Source: Escherichia phage phiLLS. From it: a stretch of 64,000 nucleotides of DNA. Position 1 is the stretch's first letter, and every line of letters starts with the position of its first letter. The notes beneath the pieces were generated by a model, which saw only the letters and a list, made by a program, of their open reading frames with translations, had not been told where the DNA came from and did not search any database. A program made the translations under genes and the position numbers. Shown piece after piece: positions 12,139 to 45,447 of this stretch. The stretch is from sequence record NC_047822.1, one strand, 5' to 3'.

Positions 12139-12429
12139 ATGAAACGTTATCTTTCTGTAATATTCCAAACTGGTGGCCAAAGATACACCTATGAATTTCC
12201 ATCCTCTTGGAAAATCAAAGAGGGTGATCAAGTAGTAGTGCTAACACCGCGTGAAGGATATAAAGTAGTAACGGTTAAACAAGTATTTCCAAAAGATCAT
12301 GAACCAGCTAAAGGCATCCGCTATAAGATGATTCATGGTGTGGTTCGTCAAGTACCACGAACTGAGGTAGAAGTAGATAAGACTGGAGAAACTAAATTCC
12401 ATTATACTTCTTACTTAGACAGTGTGTGA
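12139..12429 (+). CDS. hypothetical protein (96 aa)
   Basis: RBS GAGAGGGAAACC after promoter. Confidence 0.5.
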   Translation: MKRYLSVIFQTGGQRYTYEFPSSWKIKEGDQVVVLTPREGYKVVTVKQVFPKDHEPAKGIRYKMIHGVVRQVPRTEVEVDKTGETKFHYTSYLDSV

Positions 12430-12444
12430 TGTAAATATTTTAAT

Positions 12445-12521
12445 GCTTCGGTAGCTTAGCGATCTAAAGCACTCGGCCGATAACCGAGAGATCGGGGGTT
12501 TAAATCCCTCCCGGAGTACCA
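12445..12521 (+). tRNA. tRNA-Ile (anticodon GAT)
   Basis: Acceptor GCTTCGG/CCGGAGT, anticodon stem CTCGG/CCGAG with loop CCGATAA, T-arm GGGGG-TTTAAAT-CCCTC. Confidence 0.5.
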
Positions 12522-12617
12522 AATTTAGGAATTAAGACTATGCGTCCAGGAAAGTTTAAAAAAGCTAATTGGTCTAAAGAGTATAAAGAATACTTACTTA
12601 GTCTAGTAAAACATAAC

Positions 12618-12693
12618 AGTTAGTTGGCAGAGTGGTTATGCACCTCCTTCATACGGAGCGACTACAGTGGTTCAAATCCACTACTAACTACCA
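12618..12693 (+). tRNA. tRNA with anticodon CAT (third copy)
   Basis: Acceptor AGTTAGT/ACTAACT, anticodon loop TTCATAC, T-arm AGTGG-TTCAAAT-CCACT. Confidence 0.5.
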
Positions 12694-29258: not shown

Positions 29259-30143
29259 ATGTATAACTTTAAAGATAAACTAAGACAAAATGCTGGTAAA
29301 ACAAAACCTAAAGAGAACAATAATGTTCCTAATGCCAAAGTATTATCATTTCCAGAACTGTCTCAAGAAGAAAAAGATAAGTTAGCATTTATGTTTGATG
29401 CCCTTCTAGAGCTAAATGGACGTTTATATTCCTCACTCAATATTAATGAGAAACGTTTAGTAGAGATGTTTTGTAAGCGTTATCAAGTTACTTCAAAGGG
29501 CAATTCTTATAAAGAAGGTGAGAAAGCATTCACAGTCTTAAAGATTAGCGCATATGCACATCGTTTCTTAGTTTATGGGTTACAGATGGAATACTTCACC
29601 ATCCCATCATTTAGCTCTTTCCATATCTTTGAAGATGAACGAATGAATATTGATGATCTCTATGGGGATACATACAAATACTCAGGAAGTCCATTCCATG
29701 ATGCATTAAGGAGTTACCCAACTAACTATTTACCAGTTAGGGCATCACAAGGTAAAGCTAGCATCTTCGCTGTTTACTCAGGATCTAAAGCATCGGATCT
29801 AGAAACTTATATATTTAAAGAGCGTAAATCTGTGCTTCCAGATGAAGCATTGTATAACAATCCATTGCTTCCAGAAAAAGAACCAGAAAAAGTTGATGTA
29901 ACCCCACCAATCCCATCTGATTCTCAGTATTTAATTTATGAGAAACAAGTTAAGTTATCCCTAGAAATTGGGTTAGTTACACCGCTTGCTGCAGCGTTCA
30001 TAAATAGATACCTAGAAATCCCAGAAGAGTTCCACCAACGTTATAGTACGAATGTTCAGATAACGGATGAACTAATTGCGTTAGCAAAAGATACACCTAC
30101 AGATACTGAGGCGTATCAAAAAGCATACCAAGAGTTACTGTAA
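29259..30143 (+). CDS. hypothetical protein (294 aa); last early gene before the repeat region
   Basis: RBS GAGAGATAAATA; followed by hairpin at 30150-30186. Confidence 0.55.
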   Translation: MYNFKDKLRQNAGKTKPKENNNVPNAKVLSFPELSQEEKDKLAFMFDALLELNGRLYSSLNINEKRLVEMFCKRYQVTSKGNSYKEGEKAFTVLKISAYAHRFLVYGLQMEYFTIPSFSSFHIFEDERMNIDDLYGDTYKYSGSPFHDALRSYPTNYLPVRASQGKASIFAVYSGSKASDLETYIFKERKSVLPDEALYNNPLLPEKEPEKVDVTPPIPSDSQYLIYEKQVKLSLEIGLVTPLAAAFINRYLEIPEEFHQRYSTNVQITDELIALAKDTPTDTEAYQKAYQELL

Positions 30144-30576
30144 GATCCTGCATGTCTCGGTGCACAATACCTGTACCGAGACAGAAATACAAACTCTCGT
30201 TGACAGATAGCTAAATGTATGTTATCATAACTCTATGAGTTAATAGAATTAACCATTTAGAGTTGCCACACAGAAGGTGTGGTGGTTCAGTAATTTAAAA
30301 TTACTAACTTGTAGCGGAGGATACGGAGCGACAGGACAAGTTAATAAGTAATTTAATATAAATTGCTAGAAACATCACGAGACCTTCTGGCGGGGGCAAA
30401 GCTCTATATGAGAACCCTGGGGGATCTTATATTTAAAATAAAAGTAAAACTTTTGACCACATAATTTACATTCAAGATGATACACCTGTTGCCGCTCTTC
30501 TGTTAGGATGGCACAACACTTTCCTAGAAACTCCAGAGTTCTCACGAGATACCACTCTTTCTAGGAACATATACTA

Positions 30577-30614
30577 GGCGGTTAATACAGGGCGGTTATA
30601 GGGAGGGCGGTTAT
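30577..30614. repeat. three direct copies of GGCGGTTA
   Basis: Read directly at 30578, 30591 and 30606. Confidence 0.6.
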
Positions 30615-30656
30615 TTCTAGAAGACATTTTTTGAAAACACATTTCCAGAAATTACT

Positions 30657-31256
30657 GTCGGATTTGCACACTGATATTCTAGAAATTTATGGTAGGATTT
30701 GCACAAATGCCTAAGTTTTTAGGAACTCTTACTCTCCTGAAAATAGCAGCATTATTTCGGGCCGAAGGCCCATGATTGCCTGAGTTTTTAGAGCCACAGA
30801 AATTTTCACTTGTCAAGCTATTTTGCCCCATTTTGCTAATAAAATTTCGCTTTTTCTGCACCTATCTCAAATTAACCCAAGTTATCTCACATCTCCTCCA
30901 AAATCCCCGCGGATCAGGTGCTCCGCACCAAACATGCGCTACATCCTTCTAGCCCCCAAATTTCTCTCACTCTCTCATCTTCTCCTCAAACCCACACAAT
31001 CACACACCCTCCAATCGAAGTCACAAAAATCTTGTCGGATTCGCACATCTTAATCCTAGAAAAACCGTGTCGGATTTGCACATACTCCACAGGATTGATG
31101 CGCAGCATCGGATTGCTGGAGTTTTTGGAAAAATTCATTGTCGGATTTGCACACTATAAAAATTTTTCGGGTCGGATTTGCACACTACCAAAAATTGTCG
31201 GATTTGCACATACGTGCCCGCACGTAACACCCGTGGAGCAATGTCGGATTTGCACA
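30657..31256. repeat. iteron array: 8 copies of 14-bp GTCGGATTTGCACA (two with 1 mismatch)
   Basis: Copies at 30657, 30692, 31034, 31069, 31140, 31171, 31197, 31243; non-coding. Confidence 0.8.
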
Positions 31257-31259
31257 AAA

Positions 31260-31281
31260 GCGCAGGGCAATTGCCCTGCGC
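31260..31281. repeat. perfect 22-bp palindrome GCGCAGGGCAATTGCCCTGCGC
   Basis: Read directly; sits between the two repeat families. Confidence 0.8.
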
Positions 31282-31284
31282 TAA

Positions 31285-31500
31285 ATACGAATGATAATAA
31301 GAATCATTCTCATTTAAAAAGCGGAATGAGAATGATAATAATTCGCATTTAGAAAGTGAAATGAGAATCAATCTCATTTAAGAAAGGGAATGAGAACTAT
31401 TCAAAAAGTGAAATGATTCTCATTTAGGAAAGGAAATGATTATCGGTTAGATAGTGGAATGCGAATGATAATGATTTGCATTTAAGAATGGAAGTGAGAA
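31285..31500. repeat. array of about 9 AATGAGAAT-type motifs, several as inverted pairs
   Basis: GGAATGAGAATGATAAT, GAAATGAGAATCAATCTCATTT, GGAATGAGAAC, GAAATGATTCTCATTT and others. Confidence 0.7.
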
Positions 31501-31520
31501 ACACTGTTATTTAAGTTATC

Positions 31521-31623
31521 CACAGACTTATCAACAGCACGATTTGACTTGACAGAATCCTAGCCATTTTGAAGCGTTATTAACAGACTTATCCACAGCT
31601 TATCCTACTGTATAAATATACAG
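31521..31623. repeat. left inverted repeat with DnaA-box-like TTATCCACA motifs
   Basis: ACAGACTTATCCACAGCTTATCCTACTGTATAAATATACAG (31583-31623) matches the RC of 34631-34671 with 1 mismatch; outer arms match imperfectly. Confidence 0.75.
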
Positions 31624-31744
31624 TATTCCTACGTAGTGAATAATTCTAATATACCGCTAAAACGTCCTGAATCGCATTCTAACGCGTTTAATTTTGGTGG
31701 GGATACTAAAACAAGGGGGTATTTAACTGGAGGCATGGAAAAAC

Positions 31745-31775
31745 GGGGAGCTAATCCCCGTCGTTCTCAGAGTAG
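31745..31775 (-). terminator. Rho-independent terminator ending the minus-strand 7-gene operon
   Basis: On minus strand ACGGGGATTAGCTCCCCGT hairpin followed by TTTTT. Confidence 0.55.
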
Positions 31776-31876
31776 CGGGCAACCGTTACGCTTTGCCCAC
31801 TCCCGCCACTCATCTTGATGTCTAGATTTGCGACGGCGTACTAAAAACCGCTTATACCAGTGATTAAACCATCGTT

Positions 31877-32080
31877 TCATAAACCATCCTCCGGTAATTG
31901 ATGCGTGATCTTTTCCTCTTCCCCATAGGAATCGACCAAATGCTGATAATAACCATCGTGATCATAAATCACTTTATCATACTCGCCACGCTCGACCGCT
32001 TGCCGGTTTTCTGGCGTATCGGGCACGTAAAAAACGTCAACCATTGTACTGATTTTGGTTACAACAATTTTATTGCTCAT
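31877..32080 (-). CDS. hypothetical acidic protein (67 aa), last gene of the island operon
   Basis: RBS GGGGG; codirectional with six upstream genes. Confidence 0.45.
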   Translation of the reverse strand: MSNKIVVTKISTMVDVFYVPDTPENRQAVERGEYDKVIYDHDGYYQHLVDSYGEEEKITHQLPEDGL

Positions 32081-32098
32081 AATAACCCCCGTTATTAA

Positions 32099-32257
32099 TT
32101 ATTTGCGTAAATATACGCTTGCCAATAGTCCAGCTAGAAAGCCCGCCGATACACCAAATGAAGCCACACCGGGAACACTAGCACCATGAGCATATAAAGC
32201 CCAGCAAATTACATAAGGCAACAACGGAAACATGCCAGCTATTAAAAACTTTTTCAT
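32099..32257 (-). CDS. small membrane protein (52 aa)
   Basis: Not in ORF track; MKKFLIAGMFPLLPYVICWALYAHG...; ATGA overlap with upstream stop. Confidence 0.4.
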   Translation of the reverse strand: MKKFLIAGMFPLLPYVICWALYAHGASVPGVASFGVSAGFLAGLLASVYLRK

Positions 32258-32598
32258 TGCGCCACCTTTCGAAACGCTGTTTCAATACTATCCGCAGTGG
32301 ATTGAATATACGCGCCTTTCATTACTAGGCGCTCGGTGCATATCTTGCGGAAAATATTAATAAAATCATCTTCATTTTCTGCAATTAACGCTTCACCCAT
32401 AACCTGAACGTCACAAGATGCAAAGGTCAAAAATTGAAACGCTAGTTCACGGGCAACGACCGCATTAATCTTATAATGCGCTTTGCCCTCATAAATATTA
32501 ATAACGCCCTTATAAGCTGGTGAAAGCTGGTTTAAATAGTTTGCTAACAATGCCGGGCGGCAATTAGCAACAAAGCGGTTGCCTTCATAAATAACCAT
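32254..32598 (-). CDS. hypothetical protein (114 aa)
   Basis: Start set at MVIYEG (TAAaATG junction with upstream gene); ORF track extends to 32637. Confidence 0.45.
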   Translation of the reverse strand: MVIYEGNRFVANCRPALLANYLNQLSPAYKGVINIYEGKAHYKINAVVARELAFQFLTFASCDVQVMGEALIAENEDDFINIFRKICTERLVMKGAYIQSTADSIETAFRKVAQ

Positions 32599-32599
32599 T

Positions 32600-32812
32600 T
32601 TATAACACCCCACGAAACGCAGCGTAAAAGGTGGCAAAGTGTTTAACCGTTTCAGCGATCACGTTGCCGCGCTTGTCAAATTTCTTTTCTGTAACACGAA
32701 AGGCATTCTTATTACGTGCTACATATTCGATTTTACAATCTTCACGCTCGAACGTGTTAACATCCACCAGCTTAAAGCCTTTCGAACGAGCAAGAGAAAC
32801 GTTGCGGATCAT
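32600..32812 (-). CDS. hypothetical basic protein (70 aa)
   Basis: RBS AAGGAGAATAAAA. Confidence 0.45.
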   Translation of the reverse strand: MIRNVSLARSKGFKLVDVNTFEREDCKIEYVARNKNAFRVTEKKFDKRGNVIAETVKHFATFYAAFRGVL

Positions 32813-32814
32813 TT

Positions 32815-32970
32815 TTATTCTCCTTTACTAGTCATGCAGCCCAGCAGATAAGAAAAAACGGCGATACCCGCGCCGACAATAACGGCGTGAACGTCGAAAG
32901 CTATAGCAAAAAGTGATAAAATAGCACCCAAGATACCTGCTAGAATTGACCGAAAAATAACCATTTTCAT
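32815..32970 (-). CDS. small membrane protein (51 aa)
   Basis: Not in ORF track; MKMVIFRSILAGILGAILSLFAIAF...; RBS AGGGGAATG. Confidence 0.4.
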   Translation of the reverse strand: MKMVIFRSILAGILGAILSLFAIAFDVHAVIVGAGIAVFSYLLGCMTSKGE

Positions 32971-33010
32971 TCCCCTAGTTAATGGGGCGAAAGTAACGCC
33001 CCGTTATTAA

Positions 33011-33241
33011 TTACATTAAAACAATTTTTGCAGCTTGTTTTTTAGTACAGTGTTCCGCTTTCAGGGTATCCAGCAAAAAGCCCGCTGTTTGCTGATCAAT
33101 CTTATCAGCGTTGTATAGTTCTTGGATGGTGTTATAGGTTTTAGCAATGCCGAACTCCTGCACCATTTCATGAATAACAACACGATTAGATACCCAACCT
33201 TGCGCGGTGAACAGATGACTAGCAGAAGAATAAGCAACCAT
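33011..33241 (-). CDS. hypothetical protein (76 aa)
   Basis: Start set at MVAYSS after RBS GGAGG; ORF track extends to 33298. Confidence 0.45.
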   Translation of the reverse strand: MVAYSSASHLFTAQGWVSNRVVIHEMVQEFGIAKTYNTIQELYNADKIDQQTAGFLLDTLKAEHCTKKQAAKIVLM

Positions 33242-33358
33242 TTTAAACCTCCAAATTTTTGGGAAAATTTTCAATCCACCGTTTTGGTGTAAAAGCATTA
33301 TAACAAAAAAGGCCGCCTATTATGGCGACCTTTACAAAACTTTACACTAAATTAATTA

Positions 33359-34363
33359 TTACTCGCTTTCGGTGCTAGTGGTAAAAGTAGAAATATCAAT
33401 ACCTTTCACCATTTCATCGATCATTTCAGCGATGTTAAAACTTTGCACCATTTCTAACATTGCCGCTTCCATAGCGGCCCCTGCTACCGCTTTCGCTTTC
33501 TGGTTGCTTGGGGCATACTGGTCAACCGCTACGCTCAGCAGGTTGGCAATTACTACTCGACCGATAGGCGTATCAATATAACCTTTAATCATGAACGGTG
33601 CTTTTTTAGCCGCTACTTTCGTAATTTGAGTAAGTGCAATTTTACCCGCTTCCAGTTTTGCAGCGTTTACAACAGCGGATTTATTAGCGGCAACAATGTT
33701 AGCAATCTTGGTCATAGTATTTTTTCCTTTGTTTTCAGTGATTTGAGTATTAACGCTTTGAGTGTTAGAATTTACAACATGGTTTTCTGTATTGTCAACT
33801 GGTTTTAGCGTAAATCCAGCATTTGCAACATTTGATTCATTCCCATATTCTAAATAATCGCTAGGGATCAACATGTTGCCACTAGCGCGTTCAAAACATA
33901 ACACGCCAGTTGTAGAAATTACATCACTATCAGCACTTTTGTAATTAGCTGATAGTTCACGCCAAATGCTAGTTAATAACGATCCGACACTATCAGTCCT
34001 GATATTACTTACTTTTGTTGCTGTTACTTGCTCTTTTTCTTGCACGTTATATAATCGCGCAATGTAGCCACTATTAGATTCACTATAACCAACAATGATA
34101 AAATCAATATCACTCCCACGTTGATTGCGGAAAATGTGATAATCACGGTTGAAAATTACTAGCGCCCTTTTCTGGTCTAGTAATTGTGTGAAATCTTCAA
34201 CTGAATAATGAGTATCATTACTGTCTAAAATTTCATCATGAATCTTTTCAACCATGCTAGCGGTATGTTGTACACTTGCCGCGCTACTACCATCTAGCAG
34301 GTTGCGCAAACTACCCTTTACAATAGTTGCGTTTGCTGGTACTGCAATTCTAGTAAAAGACAT
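33359..34363 (-). CDS. hypothetical protein (334 aa), first gene of the island operon
   Basis: Strong RBS GAGGGAGA; Ala/Lys-rich C-terminal half; no recognisable catalytic motif. Confidence 0.55.
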   Translation of the reverse strand: MSFTRIAVPANATIVKGSLRNLLDGSSAASVQHTASMVEKIHDEILDSNDTHYSVEDFTQLLDQKRALVIFNRDYHIFRNQRGSDIDFIIVGYSESNSGYIARLYNVQEKEQVTATKVSNIRTDSVGSLLTSIWRELSANYKSADSDVISTTGVLCFERASGNMLIPSDYLEYGNESNVANAGFTLKPVDNTENHVVNSNTQSVNTQITENKGKNTMTKIANIVAANKSAVVNAAKLEAGKIALTQITKVAAKKAPFMIKGYIDTPIGRVVIANLLSVAVDQYAPSNQKAKAVAGAAMEAAMLEMVQSFNIAEMIDEMVKGIDISTFTTSTESE

Positions 34364-34630
34364 TTTCTTGTCTCCCTCGTTAATCGGTGAGTAAATGATA
34401 AAGGTATTTTCTTTCTAGGGGCAAATATTATTTTACCTTTTTATTTTCCTTGCCTAGCGCCTAGTTTTATGCTAACCGCGCAGCGGTACAGTAAAGAGCA
34501 AAACACGGTGAAGCCGCTAGGGCGGCGCATTGAGGCTTTACTTTAATATTACCCCCACTGCATTTAGCTCGTTAGAAAGCGATTTAGGCCGCTTAAAATT
34601 GATTGCAGTTGTTAACACTACCTTTCTACC

Positions 34631-34740
34631 CTGTATATTTATACAGTAGGATAATCTGTGGATAAGTCTGTGTAAAAGTCCTTATATCGCCGCCTATCGT
34701 GTCAAATCATTTTGTGCTGTGGATAACGTTGGGGATAACT
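34631..34740. repeat. right inverted repeat (partner of 31521-31623) with DnaA-box-like motifs
   Basis: CTGTATATTTATACAGTAGGATAATCTGTGGATAAGTCTGT and downstream TGTGGATAAC. Confidence 0.75.
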
Positions 34741-34776
34741 TAAATGATAGTGGTTCTCACTCAGGCCGATAGTTTC

Positions 34777-34831
34777 TTATAGTTATTATTTCTATCGGTT
34801 ACGATTTCTTATAGTTATTATTTCTCATTAA
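34777..34831. repeat. tandem direct repeat TTTCTTATAGTTATTATTTCT x2
   Basis: Two 21-bp copies separated by ATCGGTTACGA. Confidence 0.75.
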
Positions 34832-35017
34832 TTTATAAGTATATTATATATTATGGAATAGTTAGTTGGCTAATGAGATTTTCCGTGATTAATAGTCTGC
34901 TAATAGTTTAAGCCGTTACAATCCACCAGCATGATTATCGTTCTAGCAATTATTAGTCTGCTATCTTTCCGATGCATACTAACAAATAAAAGTCAATTAA
35001 TTTATTTCATAAAATAA

Positions 35018-35062
35018 GTAGTTATCCACTGGAAAATAAAAGTCAAGTGGATAACTAGGAAA
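35018..35062. promoter_or_regulatory. inverted pair of DnaA-box-like sites (TTATCCACT / AGTGGATAA)
   Basis: AGTTATCCACTGG and AAGTGGATAACTA about 30 bp apart; more GATAA motifs to 35190. Confidence 0.5.
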
Positions 35063-35501
35063 ATTTCATTTTTGCTTCTGGGGATAAGTTATCAACAAGG
35101 CTAGAATGCGCCTAAAACGCCCTACAACGCAGTAAAGTTTTTAGCCATCCCATCATAAGGGGATAAGCCGTTTATCGCTGCCACGAGCTTTTTAGATTTT
35201 GTCAAGTAGGGCAAGGCAAATATAAATGAAAAAATTACTTGCTTATCTGCTGGGTTTTATGGTATTCGCGCGCCCGTTTCTTTTAATTTTAGGCCGTCGC
35301 CGGACGCGGTGCGAGTATTTGCCTTCTTTACATTTCTTTACAAAAATAAGGTTGCGCCTTTTTCGTTGTTTGTTATTATTTATCTCGTAGGGCGGCAATG
35401 ACGAACTACACGGCGGGAAGTTTACCGCCGCGCTCTTTAAAAATTGGGTATATCTTAAAGTCTATCGGCGGTAAACTTATCAATTATAAGGAATCGACGA
35501 T

Positions 35502-35705
35502 ATGAAACAAACTTTACTAATCACTGGTAAACCTAGCAAGGCACTGGACAGCAAAACAAAAAATTTGTTGACAGTAGCGCAAAGATCGGTAAAATATCGA
35601 TTTAAGCAGTACAAGAAAGGCCGCCAGCAAGGTCTGGAAATGATCTGGCGAAATATTATGATTGACCTGAAAGAAAATCATAAAAAACTGCAAAAAATAG
35701 TTTGA
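35502..35705 (+). CDS. hypothetical basic protein (67 aa)
   Basis: RBS AAGGAATCGACGAT. Confidence 0.4.
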   Translation: MKQTLLITGKPSKALDSKTKNLLTVAQRSVKYRFKQYKKGRQQGLEMIWRNIMIDLKENHKKLQKIV

Positions 35706-35933
35706 CTTCCTAGCCGATAGGCTTTAAGATGTACCCAGTTCGATGAGAGTGATAACTTGATACAATTTGACGGCCGGTACTTGCCATAATGTGCCCCGCC
35801 CCCTAACTGGGATATAGCGGCCTGAGTGGAGTTCTTTAATTTGATTATAATGGCGAGTGGATTTTTTCTTATTATCTGCTACTTTCTAGCAGATAATGCG
35901 GAACAATCCACTGAATAAACTGGAGTTTATACC

Positions 35934-36185
35934 ATGAAAAACGTTATTACCGCGCCGAAAGTTGGTCAATCCGTTTTTATTCCTTTCGTTACTAAAACGG
36001 ACGAATTAACCGGAAAAGCCGAACGTATTAAAGGTGCGGCGCTTATGCCGTTCGATACAATCGACGCGGTATACGCTGAAAATGAACGCAGCAACAACGG
36101 AAAGCCCGTTTTTAGCGTTCGCGTTAAATCCGGCGACGTTGTAAAGGTTGTTCAACGCAACGAAAAATGGGAAGCTGTGTTGTAA
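35934..36185 (+). CDS. hypothetical protein (83 aa)
   Basis: RBS CTGGAGTTTATACC. Confidence 0.5.
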   Translation: MKNVITAPKVGQSVFIPFVTKTDELTGKAERIKGAALMPFDTIDAVYAENERSNNGKPVFSVRVKSGDVVKVVQRNEKWEAVL

Positions 36186-36283
36186 TTTAGTGTTAACTTT
36201 ATATTCCCCTGAAATATGGGGAATATAACGATTAACATTATGTTAATCTTATCCCTTAAATTAAATCAACAGGAGTTACAATC

Positions 36284-36691
36284 ATGACTAACGTTAAAAC
36301 CGCAAAATTCGCATGGAATGAAGAAAACACTCAGAAAGCTGTTTCCATGTACCAGCAGTTAATCAATGAAAACGGTTTAGATTTCGCAAATAGCGACGGC
36401 CTGAAAGAGATTGCAAAAGCAGTAGGCGCGGCTTCTCCCGTATCCGTTCGCTCAAAATTGACCAGCGCGAAAGCGTATCAGAAAAGCGATAAGCCGCGCA
36501 AAGTTGGCGGCGGCAGTTCAATCCGCAAAGCTCACTATGTACGCGTTATTGCAAAACATGCCATTGATTCCGGCATTATCAAAGACGCTGACGATCTGGC
36601 ATCACTGGAAAGCGCAAAACTGGAAACGCTGGACGCAGTAGCACAACTGTTAGGCGTTGCCGATGAAGTAAAACAAGCCGCAGGCGAATAA
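36284..36691 (+). CDS. pre-early-region protein, possibly A2-like (135 aa)
   Basis: RBS CAGGAGTTACAATC; position upstream of A1-like gene; assignment by synteny and size only. Confidence 0.4.
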   Translation: MTNVKTAKFAWNEENTQKAVSMYQQLINENGLDFANSDGLKEIAKAVGAASPVSVRSKLTSAKAYQKSDKPRKVGGGSSIRKAHYVRVIAKHAIDSGIIKDADDLASLESAKLETLDAVAQLLGVADEVKQAAGE

Positions 36692-36749
36692 ATTTAATTA
36701 GTGGGGAATACTCCCCACTATAATTTCCCTTAAATCAGGAGTTATTAAA

Positions 36750-36947
36750 ATGATCTTTTACCCTACTGAATCGTTAATTCTAGGCTTGTTTATTATGGCG
36801 GCCTCATTACTATTCGCTTATTTTCAAAATGATCTGGATTCGTATTATTTTAAGCGCAAAGCTAATCTAGCAAAGCGTTTGGGCTTATTTTGCTTTATTG
36901 CCGCCGTTGTTTGTGGTGTTAGTTCTAGCCTGATGCCGATTAGTTAA
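36750..36947 (+). CDS. small membrane protein (65 aa)
   Basis: RBS CAGGAGTTATTAAA; two TM helices. Confidence 0.4.
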   Translation: MIFYPTESLILGLFIMAASLLFAYFQNDLDSYYFKRKANLAKRLGLFCFIAAVVCGVSSSLMPIS

Positions 36948-37043
36948 ATGTTGCAAATTATAACGCCTATTATTCAAGGCGTTATATCTGGCAATATTGC
37001 CAATAACAAACGTTTTTAATCCCTTTAATGGAGTTTTATTATC

Positions 37044-38714
37044 ATGGTTATTTCCGCAGAAAAACAAACCCAGATCCTCAATCTTGCCGCTGATTTCAAT
37101 TTCTATGGTAAACGTCTGCGCGCTACTAAACTGGAAGTTTGTGACGATATATCAAAAGCGGTTTACGATACTGCAAAACATTCCACCGCGATTTGTGACT
37201 GGTTGGAAGCAAATAAACCAGCGAAACCAAAAGCGGCGAAAGTAGCAAAAGCCATTAAAAACGATGACCGCCCTGAAGCCGCCGGAGTTATTTCTAGCAC
37301 GGTGGAGCAATGGGAAGTAAAGCAGGGCAACCGCTTCATTATCACATCAATCCAGAACAACACGTTCCCGCATAAAAACTTTTTAGCCTCGCTCGAGCAA
37401 TATGCCCAGTTTATTGGCGCTGATTTGCTTGTTAGCAAGTTTATTTATAACAAAAACGGTTTTCAAAATGGGGAAGGCGCGGACGGAATAAAATACGATT
37501 CCGCGTTTGACAAATATATCTGCAATAAGAACGTATTTTTAAACAATCGCCGTTTTGCTTTCATGGCTGAGATTAATGTTTTGCCCACCGCAGATTATCC
37601 GCTATCTGGATTCGCTGAAACTGCAACGGCTTTAAATATTGAGGGTCTGGCAATTGGGGCGGCTAAAATCACCGCCGAAAGCGTGCCAGCTTTAAAAGGT
37701 GAAGTAGTGCGCCGCATGTATTCAACGGGAACGGCAACGCTAAAAAACTATATTCAGCAAAAAGCAGGGCAAAAAGCGGAGGCGCTACATAACTTTGGGG
37801 CGCTGATTGTTGAGTTCGACGAAGACGGTGAATTTTTTGTTCGCCAGCTTGAAACGATGGATGAAAGCGGCGTTTTTTACGATTTGAATATTTGCGCTAC
37901 TCCCGCCGGATGCTATGAAACATCGGGGCATGTTTTAGGCTTGCAATATGGTGACGTCCACGCTGAAAAACTAGATGAAGAGTGCGCCGCAGCGTCATGG
38001 GGACACGGTGACACCTACGGGCTTGTGGATATTCTCAAGCCAAAATATCAATTCGTCCATGACGTGCATGATTTTACATCACGCAACCATCACAACCGCG
38101 CCTCTGGTGTATTCCTAGCAAAACAATACGCCGCCGGACGTGATAAGGTTCTGGATGATCTTATCGATACGGGGCGCGTACTGGAAGCAATGGAGCGCGA
38201 TTTCTCGCAAACAATCATTGTTGAATCTAACCATGATCTGGCGTTATCTCGTTGGCTTGATGATCGTAATGCTAACATTAAAGACGACCCAGCAAACGCG
38301 GAACTATATCACCGCCTTAATGCTGCAATTTACGGAGCTATTGCAGAAAAAGACGACACTTTCAACGTGCTAGATTATGCGCTGCGCAAGGTTGCAGGCT
38401 GCGAGTTTAACGCTATTTTCCTAACGACTGACCAATCATTTAAAATTGCAGGCATCGAGTGCGGCGTACACGGTCACAATGGCATAAACGGCAGTCGTGG
38501 CAATCCGAAACAGTTCAAGAAATTGGGCAAATTAAACACGGGGCACACTCATACCGCCAGCATTTACGGCGGCGTATATACCGCTGGCGTGTCTGGTAGT
38601 CTGGACATGGGCTATAATGTTGGCGCGTCAAGCTGGACGCAAACGCATGTTATTACCTATGCAAACGGTCAGCGCACTTTGATTGACTTTAAAAACGGTA
38701 AATTTTTCGCGTAA
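37044..38714 (+). CDS. A1-like pre-early protein (calcineurin-like metallophosphoesterase motifs)
   Basis: 556 aa as T5 A1; GDVHAEK, GVHGHNG, GHTHT motifs; RBS AATGGAGTT. Confidence 0.6.
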   Translation: MVISAEKQTQILNLAADFNFYGKRLRATKLEVCDDISKAVYDTAKHSTAICDWLEANKPAKPKAAKVAKAIKNDDRPEAAGVISSTVEQWEVKQGNRFIITSIQNNTFPHKNFLASLEQYAQFIGADLLVSKFIYNKNGFQNGEGADGIKYDSAFDKYICNKNVFLNNRRFAFMAEINVLPTADYPLSGFAETATALNIEGLAIGAAKITAESVPALKGEVVRRMYSTGTATLKNYIQQKAGQKAEALHNFGALIVEFDEDGEFFVRQLETMDESGVFYDLNICATPAGCYETSGHVLGLQYGDVHAEKLDEECAAASWGHGDTYGLVDILKPKYQFVHDVHDFTSRNHHNRASGVFLAKQYAAGRDKVLDDLIDTGRVLEAMERDFSQTIIVESNHDLALSRWLDDRNANIKDDPANAELYHRLNAAIYGAIAEKDDTFNVLDYALRKVAGCEFNAIFLTTDQSFKIAGIECGVHGHNGINGSRGNPKQFKKLGKLNTGHTHTASIYGGVYTAGVSGSLDMGYNVGASSWTQTHVITYANGQRTLIDFKNGKFFA

Positions 38715-38787
38715 ATAAATCAGGTTGGCGGCTTGAAATATGGCCGCCATTATAAAAGTTTATTAAATTAATTGGAGTTTTATAAAT

Positions 38788-39180
38788 ATGAAAAAGCAAA
38801 ATATCCCATTCGATCGCGCTCAGTCTTCTATTGTTCTAGTTTATTCTAGTGGTGAGCGCTATCACGTCGAGGCGGGGCACGTTGTTGATGATTTAATCGA
38901 GTTTAACGAGGCGCTACAGATCACTACTTTCGCCTATACCACGGGCAAACTATCAAGCCGCATCAAGGCGAAAGGCGTTTATATTGACACGATGAAGCAG
39001 GAAACGATTATCATTGACGCGGTGAAGTCCGGTCTAGCCTTTGCAGTTGTCGCGCCTTGTCCCGCTTGTCTTGATGATCAGTTAATGAGCGCGAAGGTAT
39101 TCACATGCGCGGGCATTCGTTCCAGCGTATCAGGTGAGGATATTAGTTTTATCGCTGATGCGCTTGCGTTTGGCCTTTAA
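38788..39180 (+). CDS. hypothetical protein (130 aa)
   Basis: RBS TTGGAGTTTTATAA. Confidence 0.5.
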   Translation: MKKQNIPFDRAQSSIVLVYSSGERYHVEAGHVVDDLIEFNEALQITTFAYTTGKLSSRIKAKGVYIDTMKQETIIIDAVKSGLAFAVVAPCPACLDDQLMSAKVFTCAGIRSSVSGEDISFIADALAFGL

Positions 39181-39254
39181 TAGCTGGACTAGTCCAGCCC
39201 ATCCAGCGGGCTGGATTAATTTAATTTAATCCCTTAAACGGAGAACGTAACAAA

Positions 39255-39974
39255 ATGAAGATTACCCGTAATTTCCCGCATGTTTCCCGCGTCATGATTT
39301 GGGATCTGGATGGCACTATCGTTAACTCATTCCATCGCGTAGCGCCTTGCTTTGATAGTGAGGGCAATCTAGATCTAAATAAGTATAAAAATGAAGCGTG
39401 TAAACATGCTTTGATAATGCAAGATACACTGTTACCGCTTGTTACCTATATGCGCCAGTGCATGAATGACGCCAACACGTTAAACATTATTTGTACCGCT
39501 CGACTAATGAGCAAATCAGATTACTATTACCTACGGAAGCAAGGGCTGCGAGGGCGTGGGGGTAGCAATATCCGCGTATTTTCCCGCGATACACTGCACA
39601 AATATTTTGAAGCTGATAAGGTTAGCGAAATATACCACAGCAAAGACGCTATATATAAAAGCCACTATTTTGAGTTATTTAAGCAATTATATCCGAACGC
39701 TGATTTCACGATGATTGATGATCATAAAGGCGTGCTATCAGCGGCGGCATCATACGGATTTAAAACGCTGGACGCGCAAGCCGTTAACGATATTCTATCG
39801 ATTGGGGTTACATTGATAGGTGAAACCTTTATCGATGAATCTCTTGAGGATGATAATGATTATCAGTTCCTGGCCGACCGCCTGCAATTATGTTGGGAAG
39901 GTATGACCGAAGAAGAACGCGCAGAATATAGTTGCAGCCCGCAACAATATATTGAGAAATTAAAAGTTGCGTAA
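39255..39974 (+). CDS. HAD-family 5'-deoxyribonucleotidase (dmp-like)
   Basis: N-terminal WDLDGTIV HAD motif; 239 aa; RBS AACGGAGAACG. Confidence 0.6.
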   Translation: MKITRNFPHVSRVMIWDLDGTIVNSFHRVAPCFDSEGNLDLNKYKNEACKHALIMQDTLLPLVTYMRQCMNDANTLNIICTARLMSKSDYYYLRKQGLRGRGGSNIRVFSRDTLHKYFEADKVSEIYHSKDAIYKSHYFELFKQLYPNADFTMIDDHKGVLSAAASYGFKTLDAQAVNDILSIGVTLIGETFIDESLEDDNDYQFLADRLQLCWEGMTEEERAEYSCSPQQYIEKLKVA

Positions 39975-39989
39975 TAATTAAAGTTGAAA

Positions 39990-40040
39990 TTGTTTCACCT
40001 TGCAATTAAAATGGTTGCAGGGTGAAACAGTTAGCATGGT
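39990..40040 (+). terminator. large hairpin after dmp-like gene
   Basis: TGTTTCACC ... GGTGAAACA 9-bp stem with internal TTGCAA/TTGCAG. Confidence 0.4.
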
Positions 40041-40138
40041 AATAGTAACGGGGGTGGCGGTTAGCAGACTAAGTATTTTCGCCGGAGGCAGTGAGCACAT
40101 CCTCATGTGTAATCTTATGAAATTTCGAGATTTCCAAA

Positions 40139-40384
40139 TTAGCGCATAGAAGGGTCACCAAACCGATGTTCAGGTCTGAACTCACGGAATCTCTTCCGCG
40201 ACGCCCGAGAACCATCCGACCATTCTCGTTCAAACTCCGCACGTTTCTCGTCAAACTTCCGCTCCCTTTCCGCAATCTCCCGCGTCACTCCCGCAATATA
40301 TTTACGATGCTTGTTGATTGCCGCAGTTGTCCCGAAAACCCCCGCGAGTATCCCGATAATAAAAGCAATTACAATACTAAACAT
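40139..40384 (-). CDS. membrane protein with charged C-terminal tail (81 aa)
   Basis: N-terminal TM IVIAFIIGILAGVFG; RBS GAGGGAA; last of four overlapped genes. Confidence 0.45.
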   Translation of the reverse strand: MFSIVIAFIIGILAGVFGTTAAINKHRKYIAGVTREIAERERKFDEKRAEFEREWSDGSRASRKRFREFRPEHRFGDPSMR

Positions 40385-40568
40385 CTAATTCCCTCTCAAT
40401 TTGCAGAATACGGGTACTATCACAACGTTGCAGTAGTGCTAGCTTTTCTAGAGTAACTTGTTGTTTTACCTGAGCTTCTAGAGTTTTTAGGCGGAGATAC
40501 ACGATACGAGAGACAATGAGGATTACCCAGACTAATATTACCATTAGTGTAATTGCCACTTCCATCAT
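40377..40568 (-). CDS. small membrane protein (63 aa)
   Basis: TM plus coiled-coil; ATGA overlap with upstream ORF. Confidence 0.4.
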   Translation of the reverse strand: MMEVAITLMVILVWVILIVSRIVYLRLKTLEAQVKQQVTLEKLALLQRCDSTRILQIERELDV

Positions 40569-40672
40569 TTACGTTTCTCCGATAGTAAGGTTTCGATTCT
40601 AGCTAAGTGATTATCTAAGATACATTGCCCAATAATCACAACCCCCAGTAGTGCAATAATTACCCATTCCAT
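40565..40672 (-). CDS. small membrane peptide (35 aa)
   Basis: Not in ORF track; MEWVIIALLGVVIIGQ...; TAATG and ATGA overlaps. Confidence 0.3.
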   Translation of the reverse strand: MEWVIIALLGVVIIGQCILDNHLARIETLLSEKRK

Positions 40673-40800
40673 TAAATCCACCCCGCCATAGCTGCTAACC
40701 AAAAACCTACGAAGATTAGGAATAATACAAAACCAAATCCGTAAATATTAATCCACGCTTCGTACACTTCTCCGCGTCTGTTCTTTCTTTTATTTGACAT
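40672..40800 (-). CDS. small membrane peptide (42 aa)
   Basis: Not in ORF track; basic N-terminus then TM; first gene of overlapped chain. Confidence 0.3.
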   Translation of the reverse strand: MSNKRKNRRGEVYEAWINIYGFGFVLFLIFVGFWLAAMAGWI

Positions 40801-40976
40801 ATCTTTCGTACTCCCGTAAATGTGATTTTTGAAATATTCTATAATTTGTGCACAACCAACCGTGCCTGTGGACCCCTAGAAGGGCTTCTACTTTTCTTAT
40901 ATAGTGTTTTCTGCCAGTATACCGTCCAAGAAATAAAAAATTTAGTTTACTTGGATGTCTTTTTGCTTTATACTAA

Positions 40977-41243
40977 TTACAAGTAATTAGATTGCTCTAG
41001 TTTAAATTTACAATCACCGTATTTAAGGTCAAACTGACTGAGATCCCACCACCCAAACTTAGTACGGAGCTGTACTACTGGAAAGCGATCTCCCTTAATA
41101 CGAACTTTTTGAACCTTGAGGCCGTAATGTTCCTCTCCCGCACCACCAAAAGATTTTACAAATCCCGTACAAAATGGTTTGGGGGCAGGTGCACAACCAG
41201 ATAACATAACTGCGGCAACTAGTGCAATCACAAACTTTTTCAT
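40977..41243 (-). CDS. lipoprotein (88 aa)
   Basis: Signal peptide with lipobox LSGC; strong PN25-like promoter upstream; divergent from fiber gene. Confidence 0.55.
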   Translation of the reverse strand: MKKFVIALVAAVMLSGCAPAPKPFCTGFVKSFGGAGEEHYGLKVQKVRIKGDRFPVVQLRTKFGWWDLSQFDLKYGDCKFKLEQSNYL

Positions 41244-41257
41244 ATTTATCTCTCCAT

Positions 41258-41305
41258 TTCTAATTTATGAATCTATTATAGCAAAATAGAGAGATGAAAG
41301 CAAAT
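41258..41305 (-). promoter_or_regulatory. PN25-like strong T5 promoter on minus strand
   Basis: Minus strand reads TTGCTTTCATCTCTCTATTTTGCTATAATAGATTCATAAATTAGAAATGGAGAG, near-identical to the T5 PN25 core. Confidence 0.6.
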
Positions 41306-41328
41306 ACATTTTTATAATAGGAGATTAT

Positions 41329-43086
41329 ATGGGTTTTTTCGCTGGAAAATATAGCGATGGTAAGACCGTACTATCTTTAAATACTGAATCTGGTGGTGAC
41401 ATTAATCGTCACTATAGTCCAAATAATAATAGTATTTTTCATAGTGATATGCCATTTGTCCTAGTTGATGGTACTTATGAGGCAGGATTAGGAGATGCCG
41501 GGAATGGGTTTTTTGTCTGTCAGATGCCCTCTGACATAATAAATATTAAATCCAACGACCCGGGTAGAGTTATACTAACTGCTATTGAGATTAATGGTAC
41601 TCATAGGGCTTTTCTTAATGGTACTCAAAGTAAGGTTGGCCAAACTATAGTTGCTACTCAAGCAGATCCCTTTAGATCTTTTGCTAGTGTTTCTCAAACC
41701 AGTGGATTTGCATTTGGTAATAGTCTAGCATCTGGCACTTATAATTATAATCCCTCTCTAGGGCATGAAGAATCTATCTCTAGAAATGGTACTGGAGGTA
41801 CTACGTTACATAGTACCTATCACGGTATAGTTAGGCCCGGTGCGGGAGCTCCTGTAGGTATTACTGTTGCACAAGCTTTTGAGCAATTGGGTTTCCCTAC
41901 TAATAGTAGCACAGTACCTGTAGATGGGAATAACCCGTACTATTGGGATCCCGGATGGATGTCGCCTCTAGGAGCAGCGCATAGAGGGCATGATTGGTTT
42001 TATGTCTGCAATTCTAATATACGTGGATATGGTGGAGTTAGACAAGGGCTCCCAGGTAATGTAAATACTATGTACCACGACGGTGGGAACAGGTTTGTTT
42101 GTAGGGGATCTACTACTAATCTAGCTAACCAGTCGGGTGACTCTACAATACTACAGGATTGGTATAATATAACTCCTACTAAGGTTATTTGGTATGTTCT
42201 TAATTTAAGGTACTCGAATGGTGGAATGAGTATTTCAGGTAATCCCTTTACTGGTTCTGATATTCTTATATCTCCTTCTAATTTCATAATTAAAGGGGTA
42301 AGTCTCCCTAATACCGGGTATAAATTTATTAATCAGAATGCTTTTGGTAACTTAGGTTATCGTCCTGATATGGAGTATATAGGGAATAACGCAGCGTATA
42401 CTGGAGCCTTCGGAGATACCACTGCAAGGTGTGAACTTGTAGGATCTAGTAATGGAGGGTTGTGGTCTCCTGTAGATTATGGAGGGGCTAAATCCCAAAT
42501 TAGCATTTACAAATTTGGAGCAGGTAAACAGTGGTATGTAAACTCTAACGATAATACTATTGGTAATGAGCATGGGGTTGTTTGGGGACCCTCAGCAGTT
42601 CCACTGCGACTTTTTGGTGGAAATGTAGGTAGTTCCTATATGGGAGATGATATTACTCCCCACTATCCAGGAACGGGTGATAGATACGTTGGTTTATCAA
42701 CTATTGGGCTAGGTATACCAGGCGGAAATGCTACAGTAATTCTTACTACTGAAGTTATATCAGGTAATCTTAATTGTGCGGGTGTTCCAGCTAATACATG
42801 GAATAATGGTGTGTTTCAAGTGCAAGGAAGAAGAGCGTATAGCTATAGCGGCGGGGATGCAATATTCCACCAGATTTTAACGCTACCTGTGGGCTATCTA
42901 GTACCTTTTCATACTACATCTGCTTTTAGATACACGCCTAACAATGCTCTTAGTAGAAACAGTTTTATATATACCGTTAAAAATCTAGGAAATGGAAATG
43001 TAGAGTTAGGAGTAGTTATGCATGTGAGTTTGGGTAGCGCAGTTTTCCTACCTAGATTAAGAGTAACAGTTCAACGCCTTACCTAA
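41329..43086 (+). CDS. tail fiber protein (L-shaped/side fiber-like, 585 aa)
   Basis: Gly/Asn/Ser/Thr-rich beta-rich composition; directly upstream of terminase genes as T5 ltf is; RBS TAGGAGATTAT. Confidence 0.45.
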
Positions 43087-43096
43087 AGGAGGAAAT

Positions 43097-43579
43097 ATGG
43101 CAAATGATGTATTAGTACCAGATCTTATGTCCCCTGAAGGGATGGATGTAATTGAAGCTTATTTACAGTGCGGCAGCGATGTGCCTTCTGCCGCACGTAG
43201 TCTTGGAATGTCCGAAATTGCTTTCCGAGATATTATGAATCGTAGTGAAGTTAAGAACTACTTAAATGATATTTTTATGGAGAGTGGTTTCCGTAATAGG
43301 GATCGTTTATTTGGTGTTCTGGATGAAGTTATTAAGCGTAAGCTGGAGGAACTAGAAGAAACGGGCATGGGTTCTGACCAGGATATTATGGATATTCTCT
43401 GGAAAGCACACAAAATGAAGATGGAAGAAATGAAAATGATGGTGGAGTTAGAAAAAGCTAAAGCTGCCGTTCGAGCTCCTGCTAATCAGACTAATATCCA
43501 GAATAACATTATTGCTGGAGCTGGGGATCAAAACTACATGGATTTAATTACTTCCCTAGCTACTGGAGGTAAGAAGTAA
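43097..43579 (+). CDS. terminase small subunit (putative)
   Basis: 160 aa immediately upstream of and overlapping TerL; strong RBS AAAGGAGGAAAT. Confidence 0.5.
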
Positions 43580-44895
43580 TGGAAGTATCAAGACCCTATG
43601 TTAATACAGTAGATGTTATTGATTTCGGAATAGATAAGCGTTTCTTTCGTCTACCTGTTTCAGGAATACTAGCGCAAGAAGGTATTACACCTAATGGTCC
43701 TCAAATAGCAATTATCAATGCCCTAGAAGACCCTAGACATCGTTTTGTAACGGCGTGTGTATCACGCCGTGTAGGTAAATCTTTTATAGCATATACACTT
43801 GGGTTCCTAAAATTGCTGGAACCTAATGTGAAGGTGCTAGTAGTTGCCCCTAACTACTCACTGGCCAATATCGGATGGTCTCAGATTCGTGGTCTTATTA
43901 AGAAGTACGGTCTACAAACCGAACGTGAAAACGCTAAAGATAAAGAGATTGAGTTAGCTAATGGTTCTCTATTTAAACTAGCTTCCGCGGCTCAGGCTGA
44001 CTCCGCAGTTGGACGTTCATATGATTTTATCATCTTTGACGAGGCGGCAATTTCCGATGTGGGTGGTGATGCCTTTAGGGTTCAGCTGCGCCCTACTCTA
44101 GATAAACCTAATTCTAAGGCTCTATTTATTTCCACCCCTCGTGGAGGTAACTGGTTTAAAGAGTTTTATGCCTACGGATTTGATGATACGTTGCCTAACT
44201 GGGTATCTATTCATGGTACATACCGTGATAACCCTCGTGCTGACCTGAATGACATTGAGGAAGCACGTCGTACGGTTAGTAAAAACTACTTCCGCCAAGA
44301 ATACGAGGCTGACTTCTCTGTATTCGAAGGACAGATATTTGATACTTTCAATGCTATCGATCATGTTAAAGACCTCAAAGGTATGCGCCACTTCTTTAAA
44401 GATGATGAAGCATTCGAAACGTTGCTGGGTATTGACGTTGGTTATCGTGATCCTACAGCAGTTCTCACTATTAAATATCATTACGATACGGATACTTACT
44501 ATGTATTAGAAGAGTACCAGCAGGCGGAGAAAACTACAGCTCAGCATGCTGCTTATATTCAGCATTGTATAGATCGTTATAATGTTGATCGTATTTTTGT
44601 TGACTCTGCAGCAGCTCAGTTCCGCCAGGACTTAGCTTATGAGCATGAAATTGCCTCAGCTCCAGCCAAAAAATCTGTCCTAGATGGCCTAGCATGTCTG
44701 CAAGCACTGTTCCAACAGGGCAAGATTATTGTAGATGCCTCATGTTCCTCCTTAATTCATGCATTGCAGAATTATAAGTGGGACTTCCAAGAAGGTGAAG
44801 AGAAATTATCACGTGAAAAACCACGTCATGATGCTAACTCTCACCTTTGTGATGCGCTGCGCTATGGAATTTACTCTATTTCCCGTGGTAAATAA
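43579..44895 (+). CDS. terminase large subunit
   Basis: 438 aa; Walker A-like VSRRVGKS, Walker B DFIIFDEAA, C-terminal nuclease Asp residues; length as T5 TerL. Confidence 0.8.
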   Translation: MEVSRPYVNTVDVIDFGIDKRFFRLPVSGILAQEGITPNGPQIAIINALEDPRHRFVTACVSRRVGKSFIAYTLGFLKLLEPNVKVLVVAPNYSLANIGWSQIRGLIKKYGLQTERENAKDKEIELANGSLFKLASAAQADSAVGRSYDFIIFDEAAISDVGGDAFRVQLRPTLDKPNSKALFISTPRGGNWFKEFYAYGFDDTLPNWVSIHGTYRDNPRADLNDIEEARRTVSKNYFRQEYEADFSVFEGQIFDTFNAIDHVKDLKGMRHFFKDDEAFETLLGIDVGYRDPTAVLTIKYHYDTDTYYVLEEYQQAEKTTAQHAAYIQHCIDRYNVDRIFVDSAAAQFRQDLAYEHEIASAPAKKSVLDGLACLQALFQQGKIIVDASCSSLIHALQNYKWDFQEGEEKLSREKPRHDANSHLCDALRYGIYSISRGK

Positions 44896-45009
44896 ATAAA
44901 TATAGGATGGGATACTACTCAGTTGGTATCCCATTCCTGTATTTTAAAATCCCCTTTACAAATTCGATACGATTATGTATACTATATTCATACAGTTGAG
45001 GAGAACACT

Positions 45010-45447
45010 ATGGCAAGCAATATAAAATATAAACGCGATGCTATATCCCTTATGAGAGACGGAATAAAAAGTCAATATAAAAAAGACTCTCAATGTGCTA
45101 TCTGCGGTTGTGCTGAAGAATTAGAGCTTCATCATTACCATACGGTGTCTCTACTAGTTAAAAAATTTGCTAAAGAACTCCAATTGGATTTCACTGACGA
45201 AGAAACAGTCCTTTCAAATAGGACGGCATTCTATGATCGATATAGGCATGAGCTAGTAGAAGACACTGTTACCCTCTGTGTACACCATCACCAATTATTA
45301 CATAAGGTTTACACAAAAGAACCTCCTTTATTTTCTGCTAATAAGCAAAAAGTGTGGGTTCAAAAGCAGAAAGACAAATTACAGAATCCTCAAGAAAAGA
45401 CACAAGTCAAGACTGAAACAAAATCAGGATTCGCAAGGTTCTTATAA
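45010..45447 (+). CDS. HNH endonuclease
   Basis: CAICGC...ELHHYH...LCVHHHQLLH motifs; start moved to ATG after RBS GAGGAGA. Confidence 0.6.
   Translation: MASNIKYKRDAISLMRDGIKSQYKKDSQCAICGCAEELELHHYHTVSLLVKKFAKELQLDFTDEETVLSNRTAFYDRYRHELVEDTVTLCVHHHQLLHKVYTKEPPLFSANKQKVWVQKQKDKLQNPQEKTQVKTETKSGFARFL

Follow-up and report, generated by a model that had tools for sequence, protein, structure and literature searches.

We conclude, with a probability of roughly 0.9, that the 64,000-nucleotide stretch of phiLLS DNA analyzed here (the window) belongs to a T5-like (Tequintavirus) genome, presented as the reverse complement relative to T5, in which the long direct terminal repeat (the pre-early or first-step-transfer region) is represented once, at positions 30791-40097 (9,307 bp; boundaries predicted by homology). 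This single copy joins both unique ends of the genome, as in a collapsed and circularized assembly or in a replication concatemer. Both junctions should be real contiguous virion DNA, and the only non-physical part would be that one repeat copy is shared between them. An earlier note on this DNA had proposed, from an order of early genes, repeat region, A1-like and dmp-like genes, minus-strand membrane cluster, and late genes, that a T5-type terminal repeat sits between the early and late modules, collapsed by assembly or read in reverse orientation. Every element of that order was found where the note had placed it, and comparison with four genomes whose records include both repeats supports one repeat copy, in reverse orientation, at this place.

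The whole left terminal repeat of T5 (AY543070 1-10219) aligned collinearly in BLAST to positions 40097-30791 of the window. The likeness in gene order to T5 is evidently not a chance resemblance, because the DNA is 85-93% identical to, and collinear with, both T5 ends. The T5 alignment did not stop at the repeat: past the left copy it covered early unique DNA (30791 to 28072), and beyond the start of the right copy it covered late unique DNA (40098 to 40841). DNA to the left of 30791 matches what T5 has only beside its left repeat, and DNA to the right of 40097 matches what T5, BF23, and chee24 have only beside their right repeat. The same partition was seen in tblastn comparisons of open reading frames (ORFs): each of those from 31767 to 39974 matches both ends in one or more of T5, BF23, and chee24, the ORF at 29259-30143 matches T5 at the left locus only, and those from 40139 to 45447 match these three genomes at the right loci only. 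BLAST and ORF matches alike thus place a single repeat between left-repeat-proximal and right-repeat-proximal unique DNA, which is the collapsed arrangement that had been suggested. No second repeat copy was found within the 64 kb; a window crossing the origin of a circularized record that holds both repeats, which predicts two tandem copies, was rejected on this ground.

In the order of the window, the repeat contains the injection-stop-signal (iss) repeat region, homologs of T5.011-017, a divergent promoter gap, A2, A1, and dmp. Read inward from the left terminus, the order is dmp, A1, A2, which Davison (2020) used as a criterion, and all three are transcribed towards 40097. The leftward pre-early set (31767-34363, minus strand; homologs of T5.011-T5.017 by tblastn to both ends of T5, BF23, and chee24) includes a DUF7566 protein (33359-34363; Pfam DUF7566, 2.8e-135) and a 70-amino-acid protein annotated as an abasic-site-nicking endonuclease (32600-32812; PHROG 4227). 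The divergent-promoter gap at 34364-35225, which corresponds to T5 Repeat Regions 1 and 2 and includes the second arm of an inverted repeat, is non-coding, with no ORF of at least 50 amino acids. The HNH gene hegG, present at this place in T5, is absent, and T5 5419-6098 has no counterpart. The hegG-type insert is missing from most T5-like phages. A scan for consensus sequences returned 44 promoter-like sites compared to 29.5 expected, and terminators were not in excess.

The rightward pre-early operon (35226-39974, plus strand; PHROG matches and the tblastn map) comprises small ORFs homologous to T5.009, T5.008, and T5.007, followed by A2 (36284-36691; 99% amino acid identity to T5), a membrane protein (36750-36947), the 556-amino-acid A1 (37044-38714; 97%), a T5.002 homolog (38788-39180), and dmp (39255-39974; 97%). 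The label of HAD nucleotidase given to the dmp-like gene in the earlier note agrees with the visible DLDGT motif, the match to PHROG 415, and the identity to T5 Dmp, which are its only basis; Pfam and PDB sequence searches returned no match for dmp. Likewise, Pfam gave no match for A1, A2, the receptor-binding protein, or the small terminase, and a PDB sequence search with A1 gave only chance-level matches (E of 0.4 or above).

The genes on either side are those expected beside the two ends of T5. To the left, the ORF at 29259-30143 (plus strand; PHROG 8583), preceded upstream by a block of 21 tRNA genes, is 99.3% identical in amino acid sequence to T5 10939-11820 and is the homolog of T5.018, which in T5 is the first unique gene of the early region, next to the left repeat at its inner edge. 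To the right lie four small minus-strand membrane-protein ORFs (40139-40800; homologs of T5.162,.161,.160, and.159, with matches to right-end loci only and to the membrane protein family PHROG 6447) and a receptor-blocking lipoprotein of the Cor/Llp type (40977-41243, minus strand; PHROG 1119 Cor; lipobox LPAM_1) with 100% amino acid identity to the BF23 receptor-blocking protein. The late/structural module starts next (41329-44895, plus strand; PHROG 4815 and 3802; Pfam Terminase_6N and Terminase_6C), with a receptor-binding tail protein (41329-43086; 97% amino acid identity to chee24), the small terminase TerS (43097-43579; 98% to T5), and the large terminase TerL (43579-44895; 99.8% to T5). 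By these matches, the minus-strand membrane cluster at 40139-41243 is assigned to unique right-end DNA outside the repeat. The interval of 30150-41330 that the earlier note gave for the pre-early block thus contains the repeat, but its first ~640 bp (30150-30790) and the membrane cluster fall outside.

The inner end of the repeat carries the elements of the T5 injection-stop region. Eight direct copies of GTCGGATTYGCACA (the T5 "DRD" repeats, of which T5 has nine) lie between 30657 and 31256 and straddle the repeat boundary; all eight are on the plus strand, and the 64 kb contain only one further match, with one mismatch, at 28912. Two DRD-type copies (30657 and 30692) fall in the non-coding unique DNA between the T5.018 homolog and the boundary (30144-30790), which is collinear with T5 10219-10436 and 10539 onward, and they correspond to the segment of T5 "Repeat Region 3" that extends beyond the left repeat into unique DNA, for 270 bp according to Davison (2020). 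The core of the injection-stop-signal region is formed by degenerate tandem and palindromic AATGAgAATGA...CATTTAaaAAG repeats (31284-31500, plus strand; direct and inverted repeat families and TRF arrays) with a period of about 23-35 nt, which align to the T5 iss feature at 9140-10149. An inverted repeat of 146 nt has one arm at 31493-31638 (plus strand), equivalent to IRD'-spacer-IRC' of T5, with DnaA or DnaA-like box pairs at 31516/31528 and 31577/31589, and the other at 34616-34761, with DnaA-type box pairs at 34657/34669 and 34718/34730. There are thus eight boxes in four pairs, with 3 bp between the boxes of each pair. The published T5 injection-stop region consists of IRD'-spacer-IRC' and IRC-spacer-IRD, eight DnaA-type boxes in 3-bp-spaced pairs, and DRD repeats, a structure described in 25 T5-like phages. 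Each element of the phiLLS cluster has its counterpart in the published T5 Repeat Region 3, and a novel repeat array was ruled out on this basis. No Rfam family was found in 29.5-41.5 kb.

Alignment to relatives allows both physical ends to be predicted. The ends of T5, BF23, NBEco002, and EASG3 align, within 1-2 nt, to 30791 and to 40096/40097; those of BF23 were called from reads with PhageTerm, and those of the other three are the ends of the records. The left, first-injected terminus, at which the right repeat copy would also start, is predicted at 40096-40098, 122-123 nt beyond the stop codon of dmp: T5 base 1 maps to 40097, and BF23 base 1 maps 1 nt further in, at 40096. The right physical end is predicted between 30790 and 30791. 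Both termini are conserved compared to the determined ends of these relatives. The earlier note had expected a physical end near 40.0-41.3 kb; the left end does map there, but the boundary at 30790/30791 had been missed.

We consider it unlikely, though less so than the alternatives discussed below, that a terminal repeat is present with its true ends tens to hundreds of bases from 30791 and 40097. Such a displacement is suggested by the records of chee24 and its near-identical relatives, which stop about 107 nt and 0.2 kb short of the ends of T5 and BF23, and by differences from T5 in two of the four terminal bases at the left. The offset of chee24 from the other genomes (~0.1 and 0.2 kb) shows that deposited record ends are not uniformly reliable. 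Against displaced ends, four genomes concur on both positions, the terminal 30 nt at the right are the same in the window and in T5, and the terminal ~50 nt at the left, with a further ~30 nt outside the junction, are identical to those of BF23, whose ends came from reads.

The single-copy arrangement would arise if an assembler merged the two identical repeats and then closed the genome into a circle that was opened at an arbitrary point. Davison (2020) noted that many GenBank records of T5-like phages misplace dmp, A1, and A2 owing to faulty handling of the large terminal repeats by assemblers; the PhageTerm paper states that assemblers choose an arbitrary starting base for such phages and attributes the repeats to extension from staggered nicks. 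We compared the arrangement in the best 40 of 491 matching phage records, nearly all of which are from enterobacterial T5-like phages, with nearest relatives 94-95% identical over the flanks. In 36 of these 40, both junctions are spanned in one continuous place, and record lengths are 98.7-113.5 kb, short by about one repeat, except for one record of 56.9 kb; records deposited with both repeats are 114.5-121.8 kb. The 37th, S131 (two accessions), together with the near-identical S130, spans the 30.8-kb junction and runs to 40841. In EASG3 and HASG4 (120.6-120.7 kb), matches begin at 30791, which aligns to the last base of each record.

An identical arrangement would be expected where genome units join in a replication concatemer, and the window could be real DNA of this kind, taken from concatemers under replication, or from phage DNA of intracellular or metagenomic origin, with units joined through a single repeat. 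An early, repeat, late order is what a concatemer junction of a phage with staggered-nick direct terminal repeats should show, and the sequence itself has nothing that separates this origin from assembly collapse. By contrast, the 36 of the best 40 records that share the arrangement, about one repeat short of genomes with both repeats, are nearly all from phage isolates, which indicates routine assembly collapse, and the literature cited above describes exactly this artifact. We therefore regard a concatemer source as quite improbable. A truly internal pre-early block, in a rearranged or circularly permuted genome without a T5-type terminal repeat, is hardly credible: it has in its favor only the raw gene order, which in a single sequence looks the same as collapse, and it is opposed by the conservation of the junction sequences, injection-stop repeats, and terminus-flanking bases with phages of known fixed ends, by the near-identity of the terminase to that of T5, one such phage, and by the absence of any T5-like phage described as repeat-less among the genomes and literature examined. 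Overall, it is very improbable that the block is internal or that the ends lie elsewhere than in T5 and BF23; were either the case, the packaging or injection strategy would have changed within an otherwise 94-95% identical Tequintavirus. The arrangement read here as a collapsed terminal repeat is instead ordinary, a familiar and already known outcome of assembling T5-like genomes that implies no new biology.

Compared to T5 (AY543070), whose left and right terminal repeat of 10,219 bp is the first-step-transfer (pre-early) region, phiLLS shows the same order inward from the left end (dmp, T5.002, A1, T5.005, A2, T5.007-009, divergent gap, T5.011-017, and injection-stop repeats), 97-99% amino acid identity in A1, A2, and dmp, the same unique genes on both flanks, and conserved terminus bases. 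In contrast to T5, the phiLLS repeat is ~0.9 kb shorter, lacks hegG and T5.003, has a 52-amino-acid ORF in place of T5.016, and encodes a DUF7566 protein that is only ~60% identical. In the unique DNA, phiLLS has a receptor-binding protein and a lipoprotein of the kind seen in BF23 and chee24 instead of the FhuA type of T5. BF23 (OR083247) has terminal repeats of 9,743 bp, determined with PhageTerm, and its linear record of 114,544 bp carries one copy at either end. Its termini align to the same positions, its left junction is identical to that of phiLLS over ~80 nt, and its receptor-blocking lipoprotein is the same; the phiLLS window differs from this record in having one repeat copy between unique ends and in a receptor-binding protein with just 65% identity across the compared portion. 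GenBank assemblies with a collapsed repeat (for example, Salmonella phages WP85, PK7, and S131; Escherichia phages IME178 and phiAPCEc03), in records of ~99-114 kb, likewise have one repeat, arbitrary in position and orientation, between early and late unique DNA, and do not differ from the window in kind. Because identity to these assemblies is only 88-90% across the repeat, the window represents a different isolate.

By analogy with T5, we infer that the repeat follows the same functional sequence. The end at 40096/40097 would enter the cell first, and injection would halt at the repeat-rich injection-stop region (~30.8-31.7 kb) with its paired DnaA boxes. Divergent transcription of the pre-early genes would then start from the 34.4-35.2-kb gap, dmp and A1 would act in host takeover, and A1 with A2 would let the remaining DNA enter. 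At packaging, the terminase would cut at two fixed positions and the repeat would be duplicated.

The main value of this result is practical, as guidance for an annotator on re-opening and re-orienting the genome, which would begin at the complement of 40097, finish at 30791, and have a second copy of 30791-40097 appended. The repeats at 30.8-31.7 kb would be read as a conserved injection-stop region rather than as an unknown element. In the virion, the 30791-40097 segment should occur twice, once at each end of the linear molecule, such that the virion genome would be ~9.3 kb longer than the assembled sequence and the ~18 pre-early ORFs would each be present in two copies.

In the annotation of Escherichia phage T5 (AY543070), positions 1-10219 form the left terminal repeat, whose identical right copy occupies 111532-121750; both ends of this genome were compared with the window by BLAST. 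T5 1-10219 is collinear with the window from 40097 down to 30791. At the left T5 locus, the alignment runs unbroken past 10219 into early unique DNA (window 30791 to 28072), and at the right locus the alignment (window 40841 to 38760) begins in late unique DNA, crosses 40097 uninterrupted, and enters the right repeat at its start. We also mapped 27 window ORFs by tblastn against both ends of T5 and of the T5-like phages BF23 (OR083247) and chee24 (NC_047885.1). Each ORF in 31767-39974 had hits at both ends in one or more of these phages, the ORF left of this block matched only at the left T5 locus, and all ORFs right of 40139 matched the right loci only. Self-comparison of the 64 kb found no further copy of 30791-40097. 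Taken together, the two-sided collinearity, the ORF map, and the lack of a second copy indicate that a single repeat copy joins both unique ends. This arrangement is impossible for a linear T5-type virion molecule and fits either an assembly in which the repeat was collapsed and the genome circularised, or the junction between units of a concatemer. The proposal of the earlier note that a T5-type terminal repeat is collapsed here is thus supported, with the refinements described below.

Every element on which that proposal was built (early gene, repeats, A1, dmp, membrane cluster, and late genes) was found in the window, which is the reverse complement of the T5 convention. The homologue of T5.018 (29259-30143, + strand; 99% identity), in T5 the first unique gene adjoining the left terminal repeat, is followed by a dense repeat cluster (30.66-31.64 kb) and by the pre-early genes A2 (36284-36691; 99% identity to the T5 protein), A1 (37044-38714; 556 aa, 97%), and dmp (39255-39974; 97%). 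Four small membrane ORFs (40139-40800, - strand) and a lipoprotein gene (40977-41243, - strand) come next, and then genes for a receptor-binding protein (41329-43086, + strand) and the small and large terminase. The window also carries a tRNA block (873-12693; 21 genes, all on the + strand) of the kind typically seen in the early region of T5.

The physical ends were predicted by aligning the deposited ends of four genomes (T5, the T5-like phages NBEco002 and EASG3, and BF23, whose ends are read-based by PhageTerm) to the window. All four genomes terminate at the right end between 30790 and 30791, where the window reads, in T5 orientation, ...AAATTTCTGTGGCTC, with the last 30 nt identical to T5. 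At the left end, base 1 of T5 falls at 40097 and base 1 of BF23 at 40096; here the window reads TGCTCACTGCCTCCGGCG... in T5 orientation and matches BF23 identically for ≈50 nt inside and ≈30 nt outside the junction. The distance from the dmp stop codon to this end is 122-123 nt, compared to 124 nt in T5 and 123 nt in BF23. Because the ends of relatives align at these two positions, the repeat is predicted to span 30791-40097 (9,307 bp), with homology-based boundaries, compared to 10,219 bp in T5, 10,111 bp in NBEco002, and 9,743 bp in BF23. The end that had been placed at 40.0-41.3 kb therefore corresponds to the left, first-injected end, but the second boundary at 30.8 kb had been missed. The membrane cluster, which the earlier note set after the pre-early genes and ahead of the late ones, had not been recognized as unique DNA outside the repeat. 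The chee24 record starts ≈107 nt and ends ≈0.2 kb inside the termini common to T5, BF23, NBEco002, and EASG3. Since its internal junctions do contain the bases missing from its ends, its annotated repeat (9,968 bp) is probably an underestimate, and its ends, 0.1-0.2 kb inside the consensus, show that the ends of a deposited record cannot always be trusted.

Megablast with the 11.2-kb interval 30150-41330 returned 491 phage records, nearly all T5-like (Salmonella, Escherichia, and other enterobacteria), most at 80-90% identity. Both boundaries are spanned continuously at one place in 36 of the 40 best of these records; these 36 are 98.7-113.5 kb long, except one of 56.9 kb, and so about one repeat short of the 114.5-121.8 kb of genomes whose records include both copies. 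Among the same best 40, phage S131 (two accessions) and the near-identical S130 cover the 30.8-kb boundary and extend to window 40841, beyond the 40.1-kb boundary. Matches to EASG3 and HASG4 (120.6-120.7 kb), also among these 40, start only at window 30791, where each of these records reaches its final base. In many GenBank T5-like sequences, dmp, A1, and A2 are misplaced due to mishandling of large terminal repeats by assembly software (Davison, bioRxiv 10.1101/866236). In phages with direct terminal repeats, which arise through extension synthesis at staggered nicks, assemblers set the first base arbitrarily and the repeat shows 2x average coverage (PhageTerm paper, PMC5557969).

This repeat cluster is already known from T5, as the injection-stop (iss) region or 'Repeat Region 3', plus Repeat Regions 1 and 2. 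It contains eight copies of GTCGGATTYGCACA (30657-31256), versus nine copies of this 'DRD' motif in T5. Two of the eight lie outside the repeat, just as the T5 region overruns the left terminal repeat by 270 bp. AATGA/ATTTA repeats (31284-31500) and a 146-nt inverted repeat (31493-31638 with 34616-34761) follow, the latter with eight DnaA or DnaA-like boxes arranged as four pairs, 3 bp within each pair; an exactly matching structure is reported in 25 T5-like phages (Davison). No Rfam family was found in the repeat region. An isolated ninth DRD copy with one mismatch (GTCGGATATGCACA) at 28912, in the early gene region ≈1.7 kb from the cluster, may be due to chance.

Across the 25-kb flanks, identity to Tequintavirus genomes (chee24, NBEco002, and S131 among them) is 94-95%, and no near-identity record covering the interval or these flanks was among the database matches. 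The window therefore represents a new isolate within a phage group that is very well known. Compared to T5, the repeat lacks the HNH endonuclease gene hegG and T5.003 (loci 34364-35225 and 38715-38787), and a 52-aa membrane-like ORF (32099-32257), also present in chee24, takes the place of T5.016. The DUF7566 pre-early protein (33359-34363, - strand; 334 aa), the T5.011 homologue, is only ≈60% identical to its T5, BF23, and chee24 counterparts, whereas adjacent genes show 85-100% identity. No identical protein sequence was found in a large protein collection, and by these comparisons this protein of unknown function is a locally divergent allele. The ORF that directly follows the large terminase gene (44923-45447, + strand) has a match to PHROG 3497 and a weak one to an HNH endonuclease family. 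With CxxC...HH motifs and a match to the T5 locus in its first 23 codons only, it is probably a homing-endonuclease insertion.

The receptor module (40977-43086) is, by sequence, of the BF23/chee24 type and not the T5 type. The lipoprotein shares 100% amino acid identity with the receptor-blocking protein of BF23 and does not match T5 llp, and the receptor-binding protein is 97% identical to that of chee24 but only 30% to T5 pb5. Since BF23 uses BtuB, these likenesses suggest a BtuB-type rather than an FhuA-type receptor.

By analogy with established T5 biology, from which the whole mechanism is inferred, cell entry would begin with the end at 40096/40097 and transfer would stop at the iss region, with ≈8% of the genome then inside the cell. 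The 34.4-35.2 kb gap would be the source of divergent pre-early transcription, dmp and A1 would act in host takeover, and A1 and A2 together would be needed to transfer the remaining DNA. During packaging, fixed-site cuts at both boundaries and fill-in synthesis would duplicate the repeat.
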